Below are positions 5,831 to 28,871 of a DNA stretch of 64,000 nt, one piece after another (positions within the stretch are counted from its first letter, which is position 1; every line of letters starts with the position of its first letter). The stretch spans positions 9,318 to 73,317 of the forward strand of contig DAVY01000006.1 in the NCBI GenBank assembly GCA_002505775.1. Reading direction: 5' to 3'. The notes under the pieces were generated by a model. It was not told where the DNA came from and searched no databases. It saw only the letters and a program-made list of their open reading frames with translations. The translations under genes and the position numbers were made by a program. Source of the stretch: Euryarchaeota archaeon UBA130 (GTDB lineage Archaea; Thermoplasmatota; Poseidoniia; Poseidoniales; Thalassarchaeaceae).

Positions 5831-6121
5831 ATGGCAAAGCTAAGCAAGGCCAAAAGGGGGAAAAACAGGTGGATAGGAATCATTGTCACAAATCCCTCCA
5901 TTACTCGGTCTGAAATGGGGAATTTATTGGAATTAGGTTTGCAGGGGATAAGCTGGAAGCTATTCGATTTTCACCAGCATGGAAATCAGAAAATAGCCAT
6001 AATCAGGACTATGTTGGAAGATACATCGGAAGCTCGTGACAGGGTCAATTCAATTGAAGGGCTATCGACCACTACCACCTCAGGTAAAATTAGGTTGGTA
6101 AGAGAAAGACTCAGTCGGTAA
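5831..6121 (+). CDS. Possible RNase P protein subunit Pop5 (Rnp2)-like
   Basis: 96 aa. Pattern KNRWIGIIV … GNQKIAIIRT … TTSGKIRLVRERL resembles the RxRYIxFEI … GIVRC … TSGTIK signature of archaeal Pop5. Weak, from memory only. Confidence 0.35.
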   Translation: MAKLSKAKRGKNRWIGIIVTNPSITRSEMGNLLELGLQGISWKLFDFHQHGNQKIAIIRTMLEDTSEARDRVNSIEGLSTTTTSGKIRLVRERLSR

Positions 6122-7469
6122 CGACGTTATTGCCAAACCCCCACACTAGGCCGTCGGTGGTCGAAAGAGCCTTCCTTTTACCTCTGTCAACAATGTGTAG
6201 AAACCCATCAGTGTCAATGCCCACGACTCTGACCTCCTTTCCCTTGTATCCTACCCTTTGTCCCCTTGAGAGCAATCTAGAAAGTGCCTTCCATGAATCG
6301 ATTTGCAGTGACAAGGGGCTGTTATCAGGGATCCTGTCATCTTTCTCAATTATCGAAGAAACCATAGAATCCACGCAATCAAATATGAAGTCCCTTGGAA
6401 GTTCACCCAGAGTGTCCCTCCAACCCGGGCAAAATTCCCCCTCAACTGTTCTACTGGTTGAATTGATTCCGATCCCCAATCTAAAACCTCTATCCGAGCT
6501 ATTAGCCTCGATTAGAATGCCACCAATTTTCTTTCCTGTAGCAGAAACAAGATCATTGGGCCACTTCAAGTCGCAATTAATCAAGCTAGAAACTGAGGCC
6601 CCTACGGATATCTGAAGTAACCCAGGAGAAGGGAGCTCTGAGATTTCTCTATTTATCCTCCATGAGGCAATTAAATCCCCCTCCTTAGATTCCCATATGG
6701 ATCCTCTCCTGCCCCTTCCCATTACTTGATTGTCTGTGACAATTCTCTGCCAACCTTCTGCAGGAAGGTCAACGGAATAGTCCATCGTGGATTCACAAGA
6801 GTTGACCTTGACTGCGGGTATCCCAAAGCCCGTTTTCCAAAGGCAAAAGACCCCTAGTTTTTCATCCCCCATCCTGAGTGAATCCATAATTCTGCAAGAC
6901 CAACCAGAGTTGGACCAGTCTGAAGGCGTGCTGGGGCTGTCAGGCTCGATCCTGAAGAGCGCAACTACGACTATATTCTCGCTCCCATGATTGTTTAGGT
7001 ATTCCAAGAGCTCGAAAGACCAACCCTTGCCACCTATGTCACTCATGGAAGCCTCCTCTATTGGTTCTAGCAAAGGCTCTCCTTCTTCCGGCGGGGATAG
7101 GTAGGGCAAGTTCCAGACTACCAGCTCAACATCATCAGGTATGCGCCATCCACTTTCCCCCAGCCCCCCTTCGTCTATCACAACAGAACCCGAATATCCT
7201 AGCTTCTCGATATTCGCCCGTGAGCAAGCCACCGCATAGGGATTTATGTCATAACCATGGACATTCCAACCCATTTCAGATAATGCCATTGACACAACCC
7301 CAGATCCACAACCTATCTCGACAGCCTTCCTCCCCCTGCCCTTTATTTTAGACAAGGTTCTGCAGATTAATTCAGTATCCTCTCTCGGTGGATACACACT
7401 CGGTGCTAGGTCGACGTCCCATGGCCCGAATCTTCCCGAACTGAAGCTGATAGTTTTGACCCCTCTCAT
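6111..7469 (-). CDS. Fusion protein: N-terminal HemK/Mtq2-like N5-glutamine methyltransferase domain + C-terminal biotin–protein ligase (BirA) catalytic and SH3-like domains
   Basis: N-terminus: VYPPREDTELI (HemK/Mtq2 VYxPxEDS motif), SAM-binding VEIGCGSGVVS, WNLPY (NPPY-like). C-terminus: BirA signature GRGRRGSIWESKEGDLIASW, KWPNDLV, GGILIE, and C-terminal β-domain. Confidence 0.6.
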   Translation of the reverse strand: MRGVKTISFSSGRFGPWDVDLAPSVYPPREDTELICRTLSKIKGRGRKAVEIGCGSGVVSMALSEMGWNVHGYDINPYAVACSRANIEKLGYSGSVVIDEGGLGESGWRIPDDVELVVWNLPYLSPPEEGEPLLEPIEEASMSDIGGKGWSFELLEYLNNHGSENIVVVALFRIEPDSPSTPSDWSNSGWSCRIMDSLRMGDEKLGVFCLWKTGFGIPAVKVNSCESTMDYSVDLPAEGWQRIVTDNQVMGRGRRGSIWESKEGDLIASWRINREISELPSPGLLQISVGASVSSLINCDLKWPNDLVSATGKKIGGILIEANSSDRGFRLGIGINSTSRTVEGEFCPGWRDTLGELPRDFIFDCVDSMVSSIIEKDDRIPDNSPLSLQIDSWKALSRLLSRGQRVGYKGKEVRVVGIDTDGFLHIVDRGKRKALSTTDGLVWGFGNNVVTD

Positions 7470-7639: not shown

Positions 7640-7713
7640 GGGCCTGTAGCTTAGTCAGGTAGAGCACCGGGCTTTTAACCCGGTGGCCGGGGGTTCGAAT
7701 CCCCCCGGGCCCG
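7640..7713 (+). tRNA. tRNA-Lys (anticodon TTT)
   Basis: Hand-folded cloverleaf. Acceptor GGGCCTG/CGGGCCC (one G·U), D-stem GCTT/GAGC, anticodon stem CCGGG/CCCGG with loop CTTTTAA, T-arm GGGGG-TTCGAAT-CCCCC, discriminator G. CC encoded but not the full CCA. Confidence 0.85.
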
Positions 7714-7765
7714 CCTGTTCAGCTACGGGACCATGGTTGAGAAAGGGCTGTGGGGAGTGTGGAAA

Positions 7766-8353
7766 ATGGCGGTAAAAAGCTCAACAAAGAAGAGGCTCAT
7801 CGAACTAGGCGTTACAGAAGAACATGCCCACAAACTTGCGGATGACGCAAATATGGATGCTATTAAGCGAATGACCGTTGAAGAAGTAGCCAAGAAGGTC
7901 GGCTTAGAGTCAGGGGCATCTGAGCTAGAAAATATCATGGGAATTATTAGGGAGCAGGCAGCCTCCAGGAGAAGGAGTAGGTCTGGAAGGATAACAATAT
8001 CCAGAACGGCCCTTTTGGATGAAGATATTCCAATTGGAGAGGACAGGTTCAATGTACTGAATCACCAACTTGTTCCACACCATTCTCTAGTTCCCGAAGA
8101 GGACGAAGCATCTGAACTCTCTCCTTGGGGACTAATGGAAAAGGGCGACAATGGAGAAGACAGACTGGCAAAGGAGCTACTGCCAAAGATTCTGATAACC
8201 GATCCTTCCGTCCAAGCATTGAAGGAAATGGAGGAGGCAGATAGAGCCGACCTTCCTGCTGGATGGCTAAAAAATAGAGTTGTAAAGATTTTCAGATACA
8301 GCAGATCTGCTGGAGCGAGTACAGCCTACAGGCTAATAGTGGAGAGTAACTGA
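7766..8353 (+). CDS. rpoH: DNA-directed RNA polymerase subunit H (Rpb5 homolog) with ~100-aa N-terminal HhH-like extension
   Basis: C-terminal 85 aa match RpoH (FNVLNHQLVPHH…LPKILITDPS…VVKIFRYSRSAGASTAYRLIV). The N-terminal module is paralogous to the RpoA'' N-terminus. The ORF could also start at 7733. Confidence 0.8.
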   Translation: MAVKSSTKKRLIELGVTEEHAHKLADDANMDAIKRMTVEEVAKKVGLESGASELENIMGIIREQAASRRRSRSGRITISRTALLDEDIPIGEDRFNVLNHQLVPHHSLVPEEDEASELSPWGLMEKGDNGEDRLAKELLPKILITDPSVQALKEMEEADRADLPAGWLKNRVVKIFRYSRSAGASTAYRLIVESN

Positions 8354-8364
8354 GGGGGAATATT

Positions 8365-11300
8365 ATGAAGGAAATTGTTGAGAGTTATTTCGCGCACAGA
8401 AGTATGGTAAACCATCAGCTTGCATCATATGACGATTGCATCCCAATCGGCGATGGTAAAGGAAGTAGGATGGAGAACATAGTCAAAGGAATTCGCATAG
8501 GAAGCGACGACGCATTAGTGGATGTTCCAGGAGGAGAAGACGCTGGGGGGATGATCAAACTGGACGTTCTCGACAAAGAAATCTATATTCGCATGAAGGG
8601 CATTAGACTAGGGGCTCCAACTGTCAGGGAAGCCAATGGCGCTGAGCACCCCGCTACGCCTTTGGAATGCCGACTTAGGAAGCTGACTTACTTCTCACCT
8701 ATCTACATGGACTTCAGGATATACAGAGATGATCTGCCCCCATCATCCACAGATTCCGACATCGGCTTTATTGAGGAAGAGGGAGTCCACATTGGAAACC
8801 TCCCAATTATGGTCAGATCAGGAAGGTGTAACCTACATCCAGATCACATCGCGGGAACTCAGGAGAAGTCGCTAAAACTCTCTCCCACCACATCCGCTGA
8901 AGATGCCCAAAGACACAAGGAGCTACTTAGGAAATCTGGTGAGGACCCACTCGACCCCGGTGGTTACTTCATCATTAACGGAACAGAAAGGGTACTCATC
9001 TCAATGGAAGACCTAGCTCCAAACAGAGTCACCGTAGAAAAGAACAAGAAATACGCCCATGAGACAGAGGTTGCCAAGATATTCTCACAGAAAGACGGCG
9101 TCAGGAAGCCTATCAATGTAGAAAAGAGACGCGATGGTATGCTAATGGTAAAAATCCCAAGCGCAGGTACTACTGCGATCCCAGTAGTCCTCCTAATGAG
9201 GGCCCTTGGGATGGAGAATGACAGGGATATCTTCTCTGCTATCGCAGGGCCAGTAGAGGCAATGAAGTACACAGTCGCCAACCTGAATGATGTCAAAGAC
9301 AACCCAGAATATGGAGTGGATAATACTGAGGAGGCAATAGCATGGCTTGAGAAGAAATTCGCGGCTGGCCAGCAGAAGGAATACAGGGAATCAAGGATTC
9401 AGAACCTCTTGGACAAGGAGCTACTGCCCCATCTCGGCTCAGACGAATCCGTGAGGACCAAGAAAGCAATCTTCCTTGGAAGGATTGTAAGGCAGGTTCT
9501 AGAGATGGCCATCACCAACAGAGACCCCAACGACAAGGATCATTATGCCAACAAGAGAGTAAGGCTCGCTGGAGACCTAATGGAAGACCTATTCAGAGTT
9601 GGTGTTCAGGGCCTTGCAAGAGATCTGAAGTACCAACTAGAGAGACATCACAACCGAAAGAGAGAACTCAAAATCAACTCATGCCTTAGGCCGGATGTTC
9701 TAACATCGAAAATTATGCATGCACTAGCCACAGGAAATTGGGTTGGAGGAAGATCCGGAGTTAGCCAACTCCTAGACAGGACTACTTATCTTGCTTCGCT
9801 CTCTCACATGAGAAGGGTTACCAGTCCCCTCGTTAGGAGCCAGCCACACTTCGAAGCCAGGGACTTGCACCCAACGCACTGGGGCAGACTTTGTCCAAAC
9901 GAGACTCCCGAAGGACAGAATTGCGGTCTTGTGAAAAATGCAGCGCAAATGATAGATGTTTCTGAGGAAGTTCCTGAAGACGACGTCAAGGAGTTACTAG
10001 TAGAAGCAGGAGTTAATCCCAATCCAGAAGGATGGGCAGATGGTACCAGAATTCACGTGAACGGGGATATCTTCGGCCTTCACAAGAGGCCCAACAAACT
10101 AGTTTCACAATTCAAGAGGAGAAGACGTTCGGGCAGAATTAGGCCCGAGGTAAGTATCCGTCATGATACTGAAAACAGAGACGTTTTCATCAATACGGAC
10201 AGAGGGAGAATAATGAGGCCTTTACTAGTTTTAGAAGATGGTACTCTGAACCTCGCAAAGTTCCACCTTGAAGCTTTGAAAACCGGTGAAATAACCTTCT
10301 CGGATCTTGTTTCATCAGGAGTCATAGAATGGGTAGACGCTGAAGAAGAAGAGGACTTACTAATAGCACCAAGGCCTTTCGACCTACCCGAGCTCTCTCC
10401 CAAGAACAAGAGGCCAATAGATCCGGCAAAGGTCGAATGGACAAATCTTGGAGATGAAGAAATTTCCAAAGCAAAGCTGAAAGTCGAAGTAAAGATGCCC
10501 GATGGGTCAACTGCCACTGAGAAGTTTTCAGTACCTTTGAACTACCATCAAAAGGAAATCGATGCCCTCCGTAAGAAAGAGAAAAAGGACAACACGGTCC
10601 TAGTGTACACTCACGTAGAGATAGACCCCCAGCTCATACTTGGCGTATGTGCTGCTTTAGTCCCATACCCAGAACACAACTCCACACCCCGTGTTACAGG
10701 AGGAACAGCCATGGTGAAGCAGAGTCTAGGCCTTCCAAGCGCAAATTATCGCTTGAGGCCAGATACAAGAGCCCACGTAATGCACTACCCCCAGATCTCA
10801 GTTGTAGGGACAAGGGCAATGGATACCACCAATTTCAACAGCAGGCCGGGTGGACAGAATTTTGTGGTTGCAATTATGAGCCATCACGGTTACAACATGC
10901 AAGATGCAGTCATAATGAACAAGGCCTCAGTTGAACGAGGCTTAGGAAGGTCATCATTTGTCAGGACTTACAATGCAGAAAACAGAAGGTTCCCTGGAGG
11001 ACAAGAAGAAAGAATCGAAGTCCCTGGTACCGGCCTAGATGAAGTCAAAGGAATGAAATCCTTCGATAGCTACGCTCATCTAGAAAGAGATGGCCTTCCA
11101 GTACCAGAAGAATTCCTATCGAGTGGAGGAGGTCCAGATTCCGCGGTTTTAGTCGGAAAAACCAGCCCTCCAAGATTTTTGGAAGAAGCACATGGGGCGT
11201 TCCTTCAAGCACAGGAAAGAAGAGAGTCTTCCATGATGGTCCGCCATGGTGAGGAGGGATGGGTCGACAACGTTTTCGTTACCGAGTCATTGGACTCGGG

Positions 11301-12090
11301 AAGGCTAGTAAGAATCACCCTCCGAACAAATAAGATCCCGGAATTGGGCGACAAATTTGCGAGTCGTCACGGTCAGAAAGGAATCATCGGCAGAATTGTC
11401 GAAGAAAGGGATATGCCCTTCACTGCGGATGGCGTCATCCCAGATCTAATCATTAACCCACATGCCATTCCCTCTAGAATGACTGTGGCTCACGTACTTG
11501 AGATGATTGGAGGAAAGGTTGGATCTCTTGAGGCCAGAAGGATAGATGGTACAGCATTTACCGGTGAAAAGGAGGACTCCCTGAGGGCCGGACTTCTGAG
11601 AAACGGTTTCAACCACACAGGAAGAGAGAACATGATTAGCGGAGAGACAGGTGAGCAATATCCAGCCGAAGTCTTCGTCGGGGTTATCTATTACCAGAGG
11701 CTCCACCACTTAGTCAGCAGTAAGTTACATGCCAGAAGCAGGGGAAGAGTACAGATTCTAACCAGGCAACCAACCGAAGGACGAGCGAGACAAGGAGGCC
11801 TCAGGTTCGGAGAGATGGAACGAGACTGTCTGATTTCCCATGGTGCATCCATGGTAATCAAGGATCGCCTACTCGATGAGTCGGATGGATGGCCACTAAT
11901 GGTTTGTAATACTCCCAGATGCGGGCACATCGCATACTATGATTGGAAGAGGAGGACAACGGTCTGCCCTTCGTGTGGCGACCGAGCCGATGTTCATTCG
12001 GTCCAAACGTCCTACGCATTCAAACTACTCCTAGATGAAATGAAAAGTCTTGGGGTAGCTATGAGACTAGAACTGGAGGACAGAAGATGA
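8365..12090 (+). CDS. rpoB: DNA-directed RNA polymerase subunit B (unsplit)
   Basis: 1241 aa. Canonical motifs: ARDLKYQLERH, ANKRVRLAGDLMEDLF, GRHGQKGIIG-like SRHGQKGIIGRIV, GEMERD, and a C-terminal zinc ribbon CNTPRCGH…CPSCG. Confidence 0.95.
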   Translation: MKEIVESYFAHRSMVNHQLASYDDCIPIGDGKGSRMENIVKGIRIGSDDALVDVPGGEDAGGMIKLDVLDKEIYIRMKGIRLGAPTVREANGAEHPATPLECRLRKLTYFSPIYMDFRIYRDDLPPSSTDSDIGFIEEEGVHIGNLPIMVRSGRCNLHPDHIAGTQEKSLKLSPTTSAEDAQRHKELLRKSGEDPLDPGGYFIINGTERVLISMEDLAPNRVTVEKNKKYAHETEVAKIFSQKDGVRKPINVEKRRDGMLMVKIPSAGTTAIPVVLLMRALGMENDRDIFSAIAGPVEAMKYTVANLNDVKDNPEYGVDNTEEAIAWLEKKFAAGQQKEYRESRIQNLLDKELLPHLGSDESVRTKKAIFLGRIVRQVLEMAITNRDPNDKDHYANKRVRLAGDLMEDLFRVGVQGLARDLKYQLERHHNRKRELKINSCLRPDVLTSKIMHALATGNWVGGRSGVSQLLDRTTYLASLSHMRRVTSPLVRSQPHFEARDLHPTHWGRLCPNETPEGQNCGLVKNAAQMIDVSEEVPEDDVKELLVEAGVNPNPEGWADGTRIHVNGDIFGLHKRPNKLVSQFKRRRRSGRIRPEVSIRHDTENRDVFINTDRGRIMRPLLVLEDGTLNLAKFHLEALKTGEITFSDLVSSGVIEWVDAEEEEDLLIAPRPFDLPELSPKNKRPIDPAKVEWTNLGDEEISKAKLKVEVKMPDGSTATEKFSVPLNYHQKEIDALRKKEKKDNTVLVYTHVEIDPQLILGVCAALVPYPEHNSTPRVTGGTAMVKQSLGLPSANYRLRPDTRAHVMHYPQISVVGTRAMDTTNFNSRPGGQNFVVAIMSHHGYNMQDAVIMNKASVERGLGRSSFVRTYNAENRRFPGGQEERIEVPGTGLDEVKGMKSFDSYAHLERDGLPVPEEFLSSGGGPDSAVLVGKTSPPRFLEEAHGAFLQAQERRESSMMVRHGEEGWVDNVFVTESLDSGRLVRITLRTNKIPELGDKFASRHGQKGIIGRIVEERDMPFTADGVIPDLIINPHAIPSRMTVAHVLEMIGGKVGSLEARRIDGTAFTGEKEDSLRAGLLRNGFNHTGRENMISGETGEQYPAEVFVGVIYYQRLHHLVSSKLHARSRGRVQILTRQPTEGRARQGGLRFGEMERDCLISHGASMVIKDRLLDESDGWPLMVCNTPRCGHIAYYDWKRRTTVCPSCGDRADVHSVQTSYAFKLLLDEMKSLGVAMRLELEDRR

Positions 12091-15000
12091 GTGCCAAAGA
12101 CGCAGCAAAGATTCCAAAGAGGATTGAGGCCATCAAATTCACATTGATGGACCCTAATGAGATTCGTAAAATGTCATCTGTAGAAGTTAAGACAGCTGAT
12201 ACTTACAAGGATGATGGTCACCCCTTCAAGCAAGGATTGATGGACCCGAAGATGGGAGTTATAGATCCAGGAGTCAGGTGCGAAACATGTGGAAACAAAC
12301 ACGATGAGTGCCCAAGCCATTTCGGACACATAGCGCTAGAGTTACCTGTTATGCACATCGGATTTACCAATTTGATCAAGACTGCCTTGAAGTGCACCTG
12401 CAACACTTGTAGCAAGATACTGTTGCATGACAAGCCAGACACGCATCCCGTGGATCCAGAGAAGTCAGAACAGGACTACTACAATGACAAGGTTAAGGAT
12501 GTAATGATAAAACATGGAGTCGGATCTACAGAATTTAAGAACACCATCAAGGACATCGAGAAGGAGTGCTCAAGCAAGAAGAGGACAATATGCATGCATT
12601 GCGGTAGCGAGCAGGGGAAAATAATCCTCGATAAACCCTCAACATTCAAGGAAAAGAAAGAGAACAAGGGCGAGCACAAGCTCAATGCTCGTGACATCAG
12701 GGAATGGCTAGAGAGAATCCCAGACGAGCACCTAATATTCCTTGGAATGGACAAGGATGCAGCAAGGCCAGAATGGACTATAATGAAAGTCCTTCCAGTT
12801 CCGCCAATTACTGTAAGGCCATCCATTACATTGGACAGCGGAGATAGGTCCGAAGATGATCTCACTCACAAATTAGTCGATGTATTGAGAATAAACCAGA
12901 GACTCAGAGAAAACAGGGACGCCGGAGCACCACAGTTGATAGTCGAAGACTTATGGGAACTCCTTCAGTATCACTGCACCACTTACTTTGATAATCAGAC
13001 TAGCGGAATACCTCCTGCCAGGCATAGGTCAGGAAGGCCCTTGAAAACACTCGCTCAAAGGCTGAAAGGAAAGGAAGGGAGATTCAGAAGTAACTTGTCG
13101 GGTAAGAGGGTTAACTTCTGCGCCAGAACTGTGATCAGCCCTGACCCCAATCTGGGAATCAACGAGGTTGGAATCCCGGTCCAAACTGCAAAAGAGCTAA
13201 CTGTTCCAATCAGGGTCACAAGTAGGAACAGAGAGCAACTGAGGCAGATGATTCTTAGGGGCCCAGATGTTCATCCCGGTGTTAATTACATAATTAGGGG
13301 AGATAGATTCAGAGTAAGAATTACCGATAGGACAAAGTACATATGGTCCGGTTTCAGATGCCTCAATCCCCAATGTCACTCAGGAAGCGAGGATGAACCA
13401 TACAGTGGATATAGGCCTGATTTGAATGAAGTTCTGCCTGCTCCAAACTTCCTGCCCGGACTGGTCCTGAAACCACAAAAGAGGAGAAATTCTTTTGGAG
13501 AACTCGAGGAAGAGTGGGGCGTAGACCTGGATGCTACATTGTCCAACCTTAGGGGTGAGGACGAGAGAGGCCTACCTCTCCCAGAAAATGATCCAAGAGC
13601 AGCAATTCACTACAGGTGGAAGTGGGAAATGGAGAATCCCACCGAGTATTTGCCAGATTATCTGGAGGTTAATTGTCCCCATTGTGGTAGTCCCGAGATA
13701 GAGGATGAATATGGAAACTCAGTGGGAACGGATATCGAAGACAGATTGAGCACATTCGATCTCGATGGAAATCCACGTCCCGGAGTTGTGGTAGAGAGAC
13801 ACCTAATTGATGGCGATGTCGCGCTATTCAACAGACAGCCCTCGCTTCATCGAATGTCCATGATGGTCCACGAGGTAAGGGTAATGCCAGGCAAGACCTT
13901 CAGATTCAATCTGGCTGATTGCACACCTTACAACGCTGATTTCGATGGAGATGAAATGAACCTCCACGTTATTCAAAGCGAGGAGGCTAGGGCCGAAGCT
14001 AAGATCTTGATGAGAGTTCAAGAGCACATAATCACACCGAGATATGGTGGCAGTGTAATTGGAGGTATACATGATCACATTTCCGGAGCATACTTGCTGA
14101 CGCACGGTGATAGGGTACTACCTAAGAATCTCGTAATGCAGGTGCTGGGGGACACCAACTGGGACGGAGAACTGCCTCCCGAGGTCGAGAAAGATGGAGT
14201 AATCGGCTACAGGGGCAGTGATGTTCTGAGTCTGATTGTCCCTGAAGGATTCAAGTTGGACTACATCAGTAGGATTGGCGACAATGTCAATGTTTCCAAA
14301 GGAGATGTATCAGGTACCATCGATAAGAGGGGAATTGGTGCAGAGGACGGAAGGCTTCTGGATGCTGTCGTCCACACACATGGACCAGAGGCGGGAGCTG
14401 AATTCCTGGATAGAATGACCAGGATGACTATCTCAATCTGCACTTCACTTGGATTTACAACTGGAATCGACGATGAGGACCTTCCTCCCGAGGCAAAGTC
14501 AGAGATCGCTAAAATAAACAAGCGGGGCAGTGATGCAGTCGATTTAGAGTTGGAGAAGTTCGGCAAAGATGGCAGAAGATACGAGACACGCCCAGGAAGG
14601 ACCCCCTTGGAAACTCTAGAGGAGAACATACTAATGATACTAGATGAAGCCAAGACCGAATCAGGTAATGTAGCCAAGTCGTTCCTAGGTTCAGATAACG
14701 CCGCGGTAATGATGGCTACCTCTGGGGCCAGAGGGTCGATGGACAATCTTGCCATGATGGCCGGTTCAATAGGCCAGCCCAAGGTTCGTGGTAAGAGACT
14801 CGAAAGAGGGTACCAAGACAGAGTATTGGCACACTTCCCAAGAAATGCAAAGGGAGCTCAAGAGAAAGGATTCGTAGGCTCTTCCTTCAAACGTGGCCTT
14901 GAGCCGACAGAATTCTTCATGCTTTCTGTTTCTGGACGCGAGTCATTAGTCGATACAGCGGTAAGAACCGCCAAGTCTGGATACATGCAAAGGAGATTGA

Positions 15001-15179
15001 TCAATGCCATGGACGACCTCAAAGTGGTAGACGATGGAATGGGCTCTGTCAGAAATACTGCTAACAGAATCATACAGTTCGAATACGGCGAAGATGGAGT
15101 CGACCCAGCTAGGAGTAGGGGAGGAAGGCCATTTGATGTGACAATGGTCTTAGATGACGCTCTTGGAGGTGAAAACTGA
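12087..15179 (+). CDS. rpoA1: DNA-directed RNA polymerase subunit A'
   Basis: 1030 aa. N-terminal zinc sites [17 protein letters not shown], catalytic [22 protein letters not shown]. Carries a lineage-specific Cys-rich insertion of ~145 aa. Overlaps rpoB stop (ATGA). Confidence 0.95.
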
Positions 15180-16750
15180 TGGTCGTGAAGAGTGCAACCA
15201 AGAAAAAGCTCATGGATCTTCAGATCGATGAGGAATACGCCCATAAGCTGGCAGACGACAGGAAATGGGATGATGTCAAAATTCTGACTCCAGGTCAGAT
15301 TGCGCAAATTTGTGGCATTGACTCAGGTACCGCACAGAGAATTAGTGACCTAATGGCGGCCTCCTCCAAATCTGCTAGAAGCGCCGCCGCCTCTACAGAG
15401 AAGACTGTAGTTAGGAGGAAATCTGCGGCAGCAAGGAGAAGAAGGAAGTCGATGCTACCTCTTGAGGGATTCGACGACGAATTCAAGATGGGTCAGATAC
15501 TGAAAGATGTAGATCACAAAGATGACATCTATCAACAGCTACATTCAGCTTCTCTTAATGCTAATGTGAGCCTTACTCCAAGGATGCTCATGGACCTAAC
15601 GGAAGGAATAAGGGCCAGAGGAATCAAGAAAATCACACCTTCTAAAGCAAAGAAGGTGATCGAATCAGCCAAGACCTCATTGGTAATGTCCCGGGCCGAT
15701 CCCCATGAGGCCGTTGGAATCACTACAGCGCAGTCAATCGGTGAGCCTGGTACTCAAATGACGATGAGGACTTTCCACTATGCGGGTGTAGCTACAGTAA
15801 ACGTTACACAGGGTCTTCCAAGAATTATCGAGATTGTGGATGCCAGAAAGACACCGAATACGCCCACAATGAGGATATATCTCAACGAGAAGAACTCGAA
15901 AGGTAAACCTCTCAGAACAAATGAGAAGCTTGTGAGGGAGATAGCCGCTGGACTTGAAGCTACAACTACTAGTGACATTGCAAACATCGATGTTGAGGTC
16001 GCCCAGAGGTATCTAAGTTTGAAGTTGAATAAGTCAAATATGAGACTGAAAAATATGAGTGGTGCAGAGGTTCAAGATAAACTTAGCAGGGCTTTGAGGC
16101 TTTACATACAGGCCGATAATGATGACAAACCTTCAGAGTTGAAGATCATACCTGGCATTGCGAAGAAACAAGACCTTGAAACACTAGCCACGGACCCTCC
16201 TACGTACACAGACCTCCTCCAGCTTGAAGATAAAATCAAGAAACTACAGTTGAAGGGGATTAGAGGGATTATAAGAGCCAATGTGCAGGCAGGTGAGAAT
16301 GACGAGTACTACATCTCTACAATAGGGTCCAATCTTCCTAAGGTGAGCGAATTCGCCGGTATAGACAGATCAAGGACATATACCAATAATATCAATGAGA
16401 TTCAGTCATATCTGGGCATAGAGGCCGCCCGGCAGGCAATCATTAATGAGATGTCAGACACTCTTGAGGGGGCGGGTCTTGATGTTGATGTCAGGCATCT
16501 TATCACTGTGTCTGACGTTATGACGAGTAGTGGAGAAGTAAGGGCTATTGGAAGGCATGGTGTTAGCGGTACAAAGCACAGTATACTAGCCAGGTCCGCC
16601 TTCGAAGTAACTGTCTCTCACTTGCTAAGGGCAGGTATCATCGGAGAGAGAGACGAGTTGAGAGGGGTAACGGAAAATATCGTAGTCGGGCAGCCAATAG
16701 CTCTCGGTACGGGAAGCGTTGATTTGTTCTACATTCCAGATGAGGCATGA
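15179..16750 (+). CDS. rpoA2: DNA-directed RNA polymerase subunit A'' with ~130-aa N-terminal HhH-like + basic extension
   Basis: 523 aa. C-terminal 390 aa match A'' (trigger-loop region [17 protein letters not shown], …[15 protein letters not shown]). N-terminus [27 protein letters not shown]… is paralogous to the RpoH N-terminus. Confidence 0.9.
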
Positions 16751-17125: not shown

Positions 17126-18067
17126 GTGGAAGATGCAGTAAGGCAACTACTAAGCGCGAGAGGAGTCCGACTCGATCCTTCTCCCGGTATTGTGTCTTCT
17201 CCAGGCTTTTCTCTGTTGGGAGTAGCCGAAAGAGTACCCGAATTTGGTGAAAGGGGGGGCAATCCAGTAAATGTCTGGCACTTGGAATCCAATTTATTAC
17301 CAGTAAGTATGGCCGAATTTGAAAGATGGGTCGTCGATGCTCCTCGAGGTAGGCATTGGATACTGAGCGAAAGGAAATTACCGGAAGAGTACACTTCCAT
17401 ATTGCCCCCTGGTCTGGAGATTGTAGTATGGGGGCCGAATGATATGTCAGTTTGGCTTGGAGAGGCTATTCTATCAGGTGAGCTAAAAGTCACTGCCCAA
17501 ATAACTAATCTAGATTCCACACACACAGCCAATACCGATAGAGAGGGCCAAAATCATGACATGGCGGGCTCAATTAAACCGATTGTCGAAATCGAATCCT
17601 GGCTCACACAGAAAGGCTACGAAGGGGCATTGACGTATCCAGTTCTCCTAAATTGCATCATATGGAAAGTAGAGGGTACTATAGTCTCCCCAGCCGGTGA
17701 GTCTGAAGATAAAAAATGGATGATTCTTGAAGACCCCTGGGCATCAACAATATCTATATTTGATGGTTTTGATAATTCATTCCACTCGCCAAGTTTGAGA
17801 GTATTAGATCCCCCCCCATCAAGGTGGAAAGGAACTGAACAGATAAAATCCCTTCTGCCATCAATATTAGATTCCAGAAGACAGGGTAAGACGGAAGATG
17901 CAGATGGTTCGGTTAGAAGTATAATGCTAGAATGGTGGAGATTGGAAGCTAGCTCTGCAATAATTTTACCAAGAAATATCGGAATACCAGCATGGGTGGT
18001 CAAACTTGAGGGTAGAGAGGATAAAATCCTTCACGGACTTAATGGCAGGACGTACCCAATCGTCTAA
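17126..18067 (+). CDS. Hypothetical protein (no recognisable domain)
   Basis: 313 aa ORF occupying the position where NusA/rps12/rps7 normally follow rpl30e. Coding-like composition. Confidence 0.4.
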   Translation: MEDAVRQLLSARGVRLDPSPGIVSSPGFSLLGVAERVPEFGERGGNPVNVWHLESNLLPVSMAEFERWVVDAPRGRHWILSERKLPEEYTSILPPGLEIVVWGPNDMSVWLGEAILSGELKVTAQITNLDSTHTANTDREGQNHDMAGSIKPIVEIESWLTQKGYEGALTYPVLLNCIIWKVEGTIVSPAGESEDKKWMILEDPWASTISIFDGFDNSFHSPSLRVLDPPPSRWKGTEQIKSLLPSILDSRRQGKTEDADGSVRSIMLEWWRLEASSAIILPRNIGIPAWVVKLEGREDKILHGLNGRTYPIV

Positions 18068-27986: not shown

Positions 27987-28871
27987 ATGGCAAAGGGAGC
28001 AAAGGCAAGAGCAGCGGCACGCAGGCAGAGAGACAAGTGGAAGTCCAAGAGATGGTATTCCATCAGGGCGCCCAGAAATCCATGGTCATTCAGAATAATT
28101 GGAGAGACCCTGGCTGAAGAGCCAGAAATGCTAGTTGGCAGAAATTATGAAATCATGCAGAACGAGCTTGATGGGGACTTTTCAAAGATGCACGTCAAGA
28201 TTAGATTCAGGGTAACTGAGGTACTTGGGAATGACGCTATTACCGAGTTCATCGGGCATCAGATGATGCAAGACCATGTCAGAAGGCAGGTAAGAAGAGA
28301 CAGAGGAAAAATCGACGATACCATCGATGTAGTTACCGAAGATGGTTTCTATGTCAGATTCAAACCCCTACTCCTCACAGTAGGAAGGGTGAAATCAAGC
28401 CAGAAAAACCAAATCAGGACAATCGCGAGGGAATCGATCTTGAAAGCGGGAGCATCGTCGACATGGGTCGCAATGCAAAAATCGGTTATGGATGGAGAAC
28501 TCGAGGCAAAAATAAAAGAAGAGGCTTCCCAAATTAGTCCAATTAGGATGGTAATGATAAGGAGGACACAACTTATCCAATCAGGAGTCACAATAAACGA
28601 TGGGCCCACTCTAGAACAAATAAAGGCCGAGGAAGAGGCACAGAAGGCTTCCATCAATGAAGAAATTGAAGAGTCCGAAATCGCAGAAAACGCGGTCGAT
28701 GAGGACGAGGCGAACCCAGATGCAGAAGAAACTGTTGAAACCTCAGCTGATGGGGGAGAAACTCCTGACTACGAAGGTATGACTGTCCCCGAGTTGAAGG
28801 CGATCCTGAAAGAATCAGGCAAGCCAGTATCTGGCAAGAAAGCTGACCTTATTTCCAGAATTTTGGAGTGA
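27987..28871 (+). CDS. rps3ae: Ribosomal protein eS1 (S3Ae) fused to an acidic linker and a C-terminal SAP domain
   Basis: N-terminal 210 aa match S3Ae (KWKSKRWYSIRAP…FRVTEV…). Then an acidic stretch EEEAQKASINEEIEESEIAENAVDEDEANPDAEE and C-terminal MTVPELKAILKESGKPVSGKKADLISRIL (SAP consensus LxxLxVxELRxxLxxRGLxxxGxKxxLIxRL). Confidence 0.85.
   Translation: MAKGAKARAAARRQRDKWKSKRWYSIRAPRNPWSFRIIGETLAEEPEMLVGRNYEIMQNELDGDFSKMHVKIRFRVTEVLGNDAITEFIGHQMMQDHVRRQVRRDRGKIDDTIDVVTEDGFYVRFKPLLLTVGRVKSSQKNQIRTIARESILKAGASSTWVAMQKSVMDGELEAKIKEEASQISPIRMVMIRRTQLIQSGVTINDGPTLEQIKAEEEAQKASINEEIEESEIAENAVDEDEANPDAEETVETSADGGETPDYEGMTVPELKAILKESGKPVSGKKADLISRILE

Follow-up and report, generated by a model that had tools for sequence, protein, structure and literature searches.

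The stretch of DNA analysed here, called the window in what follows, comprises 64,000 nucleotides of contig DAVY01000006.1 (positions 9,318 to 73,317, forward strand; assembly GCA_002505775.1) of Euryarchaeota archaeon UBA130, a member of the Thalassarchaeaceae in the order Poseidoniales. Its + strand carries an RNA polymerase (RNAP) operon, rpoH-rpoB-rpoA'-rpoA''-rpl30e, in which two subunits, RpoH and RpoA'', begin with paralogous copies of a small domain, hereafter the module, joined by a linker to the canonical polymerase sequence. The genes and their parts are as follows (aa, amino acids; HhH, helix-hairpin-helix; pLDDT, predicted local distance difference test).

7766..8353, + strand: rpoH, composed of the module, a linker and an Rpb5_C-type core (195 aa plus stop; open reading frame, Pfam, orthologues).
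7766..7963, + strand: RpoH-type module, residues 1-66, with a basic N-terminal tail and an acidic domain predicted to be five-helical and (HhH)2/SAM-like (AlphaFold2 model, start-codon conservation).
7964..8044, + strand: RpoH linker, residues 67-93, basic (SRRRSRSGR) and then acidic (LLDEDIPxGED) (pLDDT, composition).
8045..8350, + strand: canonical RpoH/Rpb5 C-terminal core, residues 94-195 (Pfam Rpb5_C; match to 1HMJ).
8365..12090, + strand: rpoB, unsplit, 1241 aa, between the module-bearing genes (Pfam Rpb2 domains 1-7).
12087..15179, + strand: rpoA', 1030 aa (Pfam Rpb1 domains 1-5).
15179..16750, + strand: rpoA'', composed of the module, a basic linker and the canonical A'' core (523 aa plus stop, beginning MVVKSATKK...; open reading frame, Pfam, structure alignment).
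15179..15364, + strand: RpoA''-type module, residues 1-62 (47% identity to the RpoH module).
15365..15496, + strand: RpoA'' linker, residues 63-106, S/A/T-rich, then an RRRRKS-type basic tract and a short spacer (composition, start of the alignment).
15497..16747, + strand: canonical RpoA'' core with trigger loop, jaw and cleft (alignments to archaeal Rpo1C/A'' structures, E down to 1.7e-83).

The core sequences identify the two proteins as genuine RpoH and RpoA''. The RpoH core is the RpoH/Rpb5 C-terminal domain PF01191 (Rpb5_C, residues 95-191, E=2.3e-12, 46.9 bits for a cutoff of 23.5) and matches the Methanocaldococcus jannaschii subunit H (1HMJ), which is 78 aa long; that of RpoA'' is Rpb1 domain 5 (PF04998; Rpb1_5, residues 92-468, E=2e-47), and its residues 111-518 align with residues 5-390 of the 395-aa Sulfolobus Rpo1C (2WAQ_C, E=3.6e-80). 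As the canonical cores are located by the 1HMJ and 2WAQ_C alignments, the N-terminal extensions amount to ~93 aa in RpoH and ~106 aa in RpoA'', and the canonical lengths given in the initial annotation, which had been made from the sequence alone, are right. The open reading frame (ORF) of rpoH spans 7733..8353, and the conserved start is the ATG at 7766 (MAVKSSTKK...); the start codon of rpoA'' overlaps the stop of rpoA'. The RpoH core also holds an insertion of ~24 aa, with 97 residues over 73 positions of the Rpb5_C profile, corresponding roughly to the acidic EEDEASELSPWGLMEKGDNGEDR stretch.

By BLASTP, the RpoH and RpoA'' N-termini align without gaps over 53 residues, with 25 identical (47%) and 40 positive (E=7e-17). 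The initial annotation had proposed that these N-termini are paralogous, and that the module is fused to both subunits and followed in each by a basic linker; both proposals hold, the ORFs and the composition being as claimed. When each module was used as a six-frame tblastn query on the window, it retrieved the other copy only (E=6e-14 and 3e-13), and the next matches had E values of at least 0.46. The 64 kb thus contain exactly two copies, whose similarity is far beyond chance. The linker is ~31 aa long in both proteins: in A'' its mean net charge is +9, with 35% K/R and 40% S/T/A/G (35 homologues), and in RpoH a 13-aa basic tract (about +4) is followed by an acidic one.

The extensions are translated from genuine start codons. 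When rpoH starts and frames were compared over 80 loci in genomes of different GTDB species, the module began with a start codon in 80/80 (ATG in 49, TTG in 23, GTG in 8), preceded by a G-rich Shine-Dalgarno-like stretch. All complete ORFs, 77/77 and 195-205 aa long, continue from the module into the RpoH core without a change of frame. Neither start codons lying downstream of the module nor an absence of the similarity in orthologues was thus found. The nearest upstream in-frame stop lies 1 to 53 codons away and is variable among loci. A search with full-length RpoH gave 967 clusters, the best 120 of which are all 193-236 aa long with a coverage of 98-100%, and the 523-aa RpoA'' orthologues are found in a cluster of 216 members.

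An annotation or assembly artefact, in which the starts would lie downstream or the module would be a separate small gene, could be imagined from the first two database searches, which gave proteins of 47-178 aa only. Matches in these searches never exceeded ~1.75 times the query length, and the short proteins are explained by this limit, by contig ends and by single-base deletions in the CCCTTTTGG run. Together with the 193-236-aa RpoH proteins of the 967 clusters, the 77/77 frames, the start codons with their Shine-Dalgarno-like motif and a module more conserved than the core, this leaves the artefact effectively refuted. Several candidates were rejected individually: (i) the upstream ATG at 7733, which lies 18 nt after a tRNA-Lys gene and is not conserved as a start, (ii) a downstream true start, ruled out by the conserved ATG/GTG/TTG at 7766, the Shine-Dalgarno-like motif and the variable upstream stops, and (iii) a separate small gene or a programmed frameshift, full-length in-frame proteins being abundant (77/77 ORFs; 967 clusters). 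The tRNA-Lys(TTT) gene itself (7640-7715, + strand) is just upstream of rpoH and ends 51 nt before 7766. Several long-read metagenome assemblies truncate rpoH at the same spot, by a one-base deletion in the CCCTTTTGG homopolymer run of the linker (8012-8020; P0001, P0014, P0027, P0046). This frameshift looks like a recurrent sequencing or assembly error rather than biology.

The proteins matching the module proteins are named Candidatus Poseidoniales, Thalassarchaeaceae (Marine Group IIb, MGIIb) or Poseidoniaceae (MGIIa). A metagenome scan was aimed at viral copies and its output was dominated by rpoA'' loci, yet it shows the co-occurrence of both copies: H-type and A''-type modules are both present in 40/40 loci covering both genes. 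Both copies are fixed throughout the order Poseidoniales, and the lineage-specific character foreseen for the extension is borne out, at the level of this order (MGIIa and MGIIb), by the orthologue searches and the 40/40 loci.

Across the order, residues 1-30 of the module have a mean identity of 83% in RpoH and 86% in RpoA'' (65 unique orthologues), above that of the polymerase cores of the same proteins (62-76%), and the linkers reach 59% in RpoH and 43% in RpoA''. The extreme N-terminus of the RpoA''-type module is near-invariant in its homologues. These identities indicate strong purifying selection on the module and fast-evolving linkers. All synonymous codons occur at the invariant module residues. 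With synonymous variation this free, what is under selection is the protein, and the alternative that a signal in the RNA or DNA explains the conservation of the 5' coding sequence was rejected.

To describe its architecture, the module was modelled with AlphaFold2 from an alignment of 13 sequences, all structure predictions being single-chain. The model has a mean pLDDT of 81.5 and five helices (residues 6-14, 18-26, 30-34, 38-45 and 52-63), laid out as helix-hairpin-helix, connector, helix-hairpin-helix. The full-length RpoH model (predicted template modelling score 0.43) contains two folded domains, the module (1-66, with the same helices) and the core (105-195), separated by residues 68-104, where pLDDT is below 50 (68-80 and 86-104). 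The low-pLDDT linker between folded domains argues for an independent domain on a flexible tether. In Foldseek searches against the PDB, the best neighbours of the module are FANCM/FAAP24 (HhH)2, SARM1 SAM, UvrC and RadA N-terminal domains, with template modelling (TM) scores of 0.59-0.73 and root-mean-square deviations (rmsd) of 2.0-2.8 Å, all at E values of at least 0.5. The SARM1 tandem SAM domains have the highest TM-scores (0.71-0.73, rmsd 2.3 Å), FANCM/FAAP24 (4BXO) reaches 0.67 (rmsd 2.5 Å), and NusA is also among the matches; sequence identity between the module and its (HhH)2 neighbours is 12-16%. According to these models, the module would fold on its own into five helices and belong to the (HhH)2/SAM-like fold class.

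No significant match to the module was obtained in Pfam, in PDB sequence profiles, by Foldseek against the PDB, or in BFVD. Among the HhH families of Pfam, the best is HHH_5, in one copy only (E=0.11, 13.4 bits for a cutoff of 27), and at E<=1 none of these families is recurrent in a set of 79 module proteins. As for SAP (PF02037), neither module of the window matches it and one member only of the 79 does (E=4.9e-5), in contrast to a genuine SAP domain detected in the same window on ribosomal protein S3Ae. The initial description of the module as HhH/SAP-like is thus kept in part: a fold resembling HhH is predicted by AlphaFold2 and its Foldseek neighbours, but neither HhH nor SAP sequence families are matched.

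On the enzyme, the two modules occupy a particular position. Archaeal H normally consists of the C-terminal domain only, ~75-90 aa, without the N-terminal domain of Rpb5 (PMC2847245, PMC3906176). The RpoH described here departs from this architecture, with 195 aa including a 93-aa extension, in 77/77 orthologues. H is tightly bound to A'', and both together make up the lower jaw of RNAP, whose arrangement changes in the course of the transcription cycle. Crosslinks place H at downstream DNA, +10 to +20, and open-complex formation requires H (PMC2847245). Since H and A'' form the lower jaw, the two modules would be tethered side by side at the DNA entry side, where they could meet.

One possibility is that they pair only with each other, as an intramolecular strap which would hold H to A'' and lend the flexible lower jaw stability or regulation; the module on other proteins would then serve unrelated functions. 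The presence of both copies together in 40/40 loci, the persistence of H-type and A''-type modules as distinct clades, the direct contact of H with A'' in a jaw that is mobile in the transcription cycle (PMC2847245) and the obligate heterodimerising (HhH)2 pairs among the top fold neighbours would all suit such a strap. We nevertheless consider it improbable, as it leaves unexplained at least ~20 unrelated proteins, described below, under purifying selection for the same domain, and as disordered tethers of ~30 aa would be odd for a static strap.

The charge distribution bears on whether the module touches nucleic acid. Residues 1-11 (MAVKSSTKKRL in RpoH) carry a net charge of +4 and residues 12-62 about -5. 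Hairpin 1 reads LG[IV]xEE, with one glycine and acidic residues, and hairpin 2, G[LI][DE]SG[TA], is acidic as well; the hairpin regions have net charges between -1.4 and -3.1, and the helices which follow also start with acidic residues. DNA-binding HhH motifs usually have G-h-G-x-K/R at the hairpin. The module lacks the hairpin by which (HhH)2 domains contact phosphate, namely a G-h-G turn followed by basic or neutral residues, and its acidic hairpins and globular part therefore disfavour classical HhH binding of DNA phosphates.

The module could even so be a tethered (HhH)2-type, non-specific DNA or RNA binder that gives RNAP an extra grip on downstream DNA, a role also proposed for the Rpb5 jaw and for Rpo13, and is reused on viral proteins as a generic head. 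UvrC, the RadA N-terminal domain and FANCM/FAAP24, which are (HhH)2-like neighbours of the module, bind DNA; its second hairpin, as read from the sequence, fits h-x-x-h-x-G-h-x-x-x-x-A-x-x-h; the N-terminal tail (+4) and the A'' linker (+9) are basic; H and A'' adjoin downstream DNA (PMC2847245); and Rpo13, which is helical with a basic tail and lies in the DNA entry channel, offers a lineage-specific precedent (PMC2675907). As the main rival of the docking domain favoured below, this binder is in our view the less likely of the two, given the globular charge of about -5, the acidic hairpins and helix N-termini where G-h-G-x-K/R would be expected, and the lack of a recurrent HhH Pfam family among the 79 module proteins. 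Moreover, a generic binder would need neither near-invariant residues 1-30 nor placement at residue 1 in at least ~20 families, and the basic linker is missing in most viral hosts. The extra contacts with DNA, RNA or factors first suggested for the modules are therefore to be divided: acidic hairpins and body speak against classical HhH phosphate binding and for contacts with factors.

The distribution of the module outside RNAP was established by an exhaustive HMMER search of 1.84 billion (1.84e9) representative proteins at E<=1e-3. Only 205 of them match the module, which is therefore a narrow family. RpoH and RpoA'' are the only pair in the window, but the module is not restricted to RNAP, as the tails behind it belong to at least ~20 unrelated families besides these two subunits, most of them recognised by neither Pfam nor PHROGs. 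It nearly always begins at residue 1, and often positions 1-45 alone are retained; exceptions are P0240, where it is internal (residues 93-148), and P0201, where it is near the C-terminus. Most viral host proteins are devoid of the basic linker.

Such placement could point to an N-terminal sorting or packaging tag, which would target proteins to the virion, to a replication or transcription factory or to the membrane, the RNAP subunits being sorted likewise. The strictness of the N-terminal placement, the invariant extreme N-terminus in nearly all families and the many small viral proteins of unknown function bearing the module are in line with this. We find a tag of this kind very improbable, slightly more so than the strap: the module is a folded acidic domain without signal-peptide-like or amphipathic targeting features, there is no archaeal precedent, and it is internal in P0240 (93-148) and near the C-terminus in P0201.

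Some of the fusions are informative. P0220 (L097 314-895, ENA ERZ841748, a 970-bp contig) is a complete ORF of 193 aa in which a charged linker joins the full module to a single TFIIB cyclin repeat (25.9 bits for a cutoff of 23.6). In P0220, the module takes the place of the RNAP-docking zinc ribbon that TFB normally has. P0192 combines the module with an A''-like basic linker and MORN repeats. P0240 (L085 1012-3567, JGI Ga0606705_005450, a single 8-kb contig) contains C2H2 zinc fingers, the module and an ABC ATPase of the defence type (NsnB 2e-38, AriA 7e-17, also PDC-M55A, GajA and Old), and its module might serve as an integrated bait. Tandem module-like stretches are present in P0193 (186 aa, 773-bp contig), an H-type one at 1-62 and a divergent second one at ~85-130. 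A 146-aa module protein of the P0219/P0221 family (L136 662-1102, MDSV01246608.1, 28.7 kb) adjoins a PolD DP2 gene among ORFans. This locus may be cellular or may belong to a mobile element with a PolD of its own, and some module-carrying hosts may thus be cellular.

In a neighbour-joining tree of module positions 1-45, the host clades are tight, with an internal identity of 80% for A'' and 74% for H. They are surrounded by the other copies, which share 51% identity among themselves, 58% with A'' and 44% with H. P0203, P0222 and P0271 carry an H-type copy, and the viral copies are mostly A''-type. A single recent viral capture of the rpoA'' 5' end was rejected, as the viral copies differ from each other (51%) as much as H from A''. 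The transfer might have gone from virus to host, the viral copies being the more diverse set in this sequence comparison, in which 45 residues cannot resolve direction.

Many module genes lie on recurrent, virus-like (magrovirus-like) contigs of ~68-160 kb, and on the long ones they are found within arrays of co-directional ORFans. Neighbouring genes encode ribonucleotide reductase, PCNA, an ERCC4 nuclease, endonuclease VII, a 5'-3' exonuclease, Mom and a ParA/ArsA-like ATPase, as well as several N6/N4 methyltransferases, dCMP deaminase, nucleoside deoxyribosyltransferase and UvdE. In L088 (ENA ERZ26859011 ctg146141, 159,881 bp), two adjacent paralogous module genes (10001-10483 and 10534-11007; 160 and 157 aa) are directly downstream of the ribonucleotide reductase and PCNA genes. 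Independent assemblies with the L088/L090 gene clusters converge in length (157,480, 158,068, 159,881, 161,342 and 162,377 bp), another lineage of elements measures 150,343 and 167,461 bp, and further contigs are of 68-90 kb. The module-bearing elements also include ENA ERZ25069810 ctg136785 (155,618 bp) and JGI Ga0208793_1000040 (90,016 bp). The convergent lengths suggest complete replicons, larger than the 65-100 kb of magroviruses.

Magroviruses are head-tail viruses assigned to Marine Group II (MGII), with linear double-stranded DNA of 65-100 kb, a structural module (major capsid protein, portal, protease, terminase), an archaeal-type replication module with a sliding clamp, several nucleases and, in group B, a ribonucleotide reductase (PMC5434244). 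PCNA, ribonucleotide reductase and nucleases on the elements would fit this description, as would the size of some contigs (68-90 kb), other contigs being of ~150-167 kb. From their gene content, we describe the elements as virus-like and not as proven viruses. Magrovirus group D has been reported with a 'DNA-dependent RNA polymerase A' closest to archaeal homologues (PMC5434244), and an RpoA''-type module by itself could account for this annotation.

As the module is found on many proteins of virus-like elements, its function likely differs from the RNAP-specific one first envisaged. We tentatively favour, at somewhat less than an even chance, the globular module as a protein-docking domain, the basic linkers giving any DNA contact, with viral proteins sharing or mimicking it. 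By analogy with (HhH)2 pairs, SAM domains and NusA AR repeats, the acidic globular modules would dock proteins, pairing with each other or with a common partner, and the basic linkers would be the parts of the tethered modules likeliest to touch DNA. The viral module proteins, mostly of the A''-type, could bind whatever partner the RNAP copies bind, or perhaps these copies themselves. They would in this way either bring a variety of effector domains to the transcription apparatus of the host or compete with it. Docking is favoured because (i) the acidic hairpins are unlike those of DNA-binding HhH motifs, (ii) among the nearest folds are (HhH)2 domains that pair as obligate heterodimers and SAM domains, which oligomerise, (iii) residues 1-30 are the most conserved and stand at a fixed N-terminal place across unrelated hosts, which goes beyond the needs of a generic DNA binder, and (iv) P0220 has the module in place of the RNAP-docking zinc ribbon of TFB. 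A more specific version, in which the module is a homo- or heterotypic docking tag, shown by RNAP in two copies on flexible tethers at the lower jaw, that large MGII viruses fuse to dozens of effectors, including a TFB-like repeat, so as to connect them to the host polymerase, and of which the defence ATPase carries a copy as bait for these effectors, is in our opinion unlikely.

Several points weigh against docking and against its extension to viruses. The fold matches (E>=0.5) are without significance, and (HhH)2 and SAM are not separable by them. The basic tail and linkers alone could bind nucleic acid, and the module would then belong to a DNA-binding unit. Each of the two fusions, to the TFIIB repeat and to the defence ATPase, comes from one short contig. 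Within ±10-kb windows around the module genes, PHROGs and Pfam reveal no capsid, portal or terminase gene, and no relatives of the elements were found in IMG/VR or among GenBank phages with the module, P0217, P0288, PCNA and the exonuclease as queries. The case for viruses is made by gene content, the density of ORFans and contig sizes that recur.

The tethered modules can be compared with several known systems. In function they would come closest to the other lineage-specific additions at the lower jaw, the Rpb5 jaw and Rpo13. The Rpb5 jaw of eukaryotes is a ~140-aa domain packed rigidly on the enzyme. Like it, the module is an extra domain N-terminal to the Rpb5/RpoH C-terminal domain, at the lower jaw by the downstream DNA, where the Rpb5 jaw has roles in DNA and factor contact (PMC2847245, PMC2675907). 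Unlike it, the module has ~62 aa, five helices and a disordered tether. No sequence similarity was found to the Rpb5 jaw, which is not known to be duplicated on Rpb1 or shared with viral proteins. The same locus of the enzyme is occupied by the Rpb5 jaw in eukaryotes, by Rpo13 in Sulfolobales and by a beta' insertion in Thermus (PMC2675907). Rpo13 is likewise small, helical and restricted to certain lineages, the Sulfolobales and Desulfurococcales; its tail is highly basic, and it lies at the DNA entry channel, with RpoH on one side and the large subunit on the other (PMC2675907). It is, however, a separate, helix-turn-helix subunit whose ordered part is enzyme-bound. The module is instead fused to its subunits, of which two carry it, has an acidic globular part and also occurs on virus-like elements.

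For two tethered small helical domains per polymerase, the bacterial alpha C-terminal domain (alpha-CTD) offers an analogy, not a homology, within the same fold class. It is a small helical domain present in two copies per polymerase on flexible linkers, and serves as a landing pad for UP element DNA and regulators and as a target of phage proteins. It differs from the module in being C-terminal, in identical copies on the alpha dimer and on the upstream side; no sequence similarity to the module was found, and it is not among the Foldseek matches listed. The (HhH)2 domains of XPF-ERCC1 and FANCM-FAAP24 and the NusA AR repeats act mainly via protein-protein pairing, and NusA AR2, which is acidic, binds the RNAP alpha-CTD. 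This group includes some of the best structural neighbours of the module (FANCM/FAAP24 and NusA matches), but at E>=0.5, with 12-16% identity and without a match to a family profile. SAM domains, such as the SARM1 tandem that gave the top TM-scores, are likewise five-helix protein-interaction domains of ~65 aa that oligomerise, but they have no sequence match to the module. They are essentially eukaryotic or bacterial signalling modules, and we know of none on RNAP.

Other features of the window were noted in passing. RpoB has an insertion of ~45 aa within Rpb2 domain 5. RpoA' has a large lineage-specific insertion between Rpb1 domain 1 (end ~337) and the aligned domain 2 (564-644), which holds two CxxC pairs (CLNPQC...NCPHCG) and is possibly a zinc ribbon. 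Directly after rpl30e is a 313-aa ORF (17126-18067, + strand) without Pfam match; in many archaea, nusA has this operon position. The S3Ae (eS1) protein mentioned above (27987-28871, + strand, Pfam E=1.6e-53) has its SAP domain at the C-terminus after an acidic linker (E=4e-11, above cutoff), another small helical nucleic-acid-binding motif added to a core information-processing protein of the same genome. Finally, 6111-7469 (- strand) encodes a 452-aa protein with an N-terminal S-adenosylmethionine-dependent methyltransferase (PrmA/MTS-like) and a biotin/lipoate protein ligase domain.

No description of the domain was found in the papers searched, according to which archaeal H is without an N-terminal extension, and the domain family appears undescribed. 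The architecture departs from every described archaeal RpoH and A'', and has an unexpected link to virus-like elements. In textbooks, archaeal RpoH is the C-terminal third of Rpb5 and its missing N-terminal domain is treated as a defining difference from eukaryotes; in the Poseidoniales, marine archaea abundant worldwide, the whole order has gained a tethered domain at that very position and a second copy of it on the adjacent A'' subunit. The lower-jaw/DNA-entry site, already elaborated by the Rpb5 jaw, by Rpo13 and by the beta' insertion of Thermus, has thereby been elaborated independently a fourth time. The module motif (..AHxLADDRKW) provides a sequence marker linking uncultured viral contigs to Poseidoniales hosts, and the module may explain odd 'RNA polymerase A' annotations on such elements. 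Although the organisms are uncultured, these small domains can be tested as recombinant proteins, and they offer an experimental way into the possible interplay of Marine Group II viruses with the transcription of their hosts.

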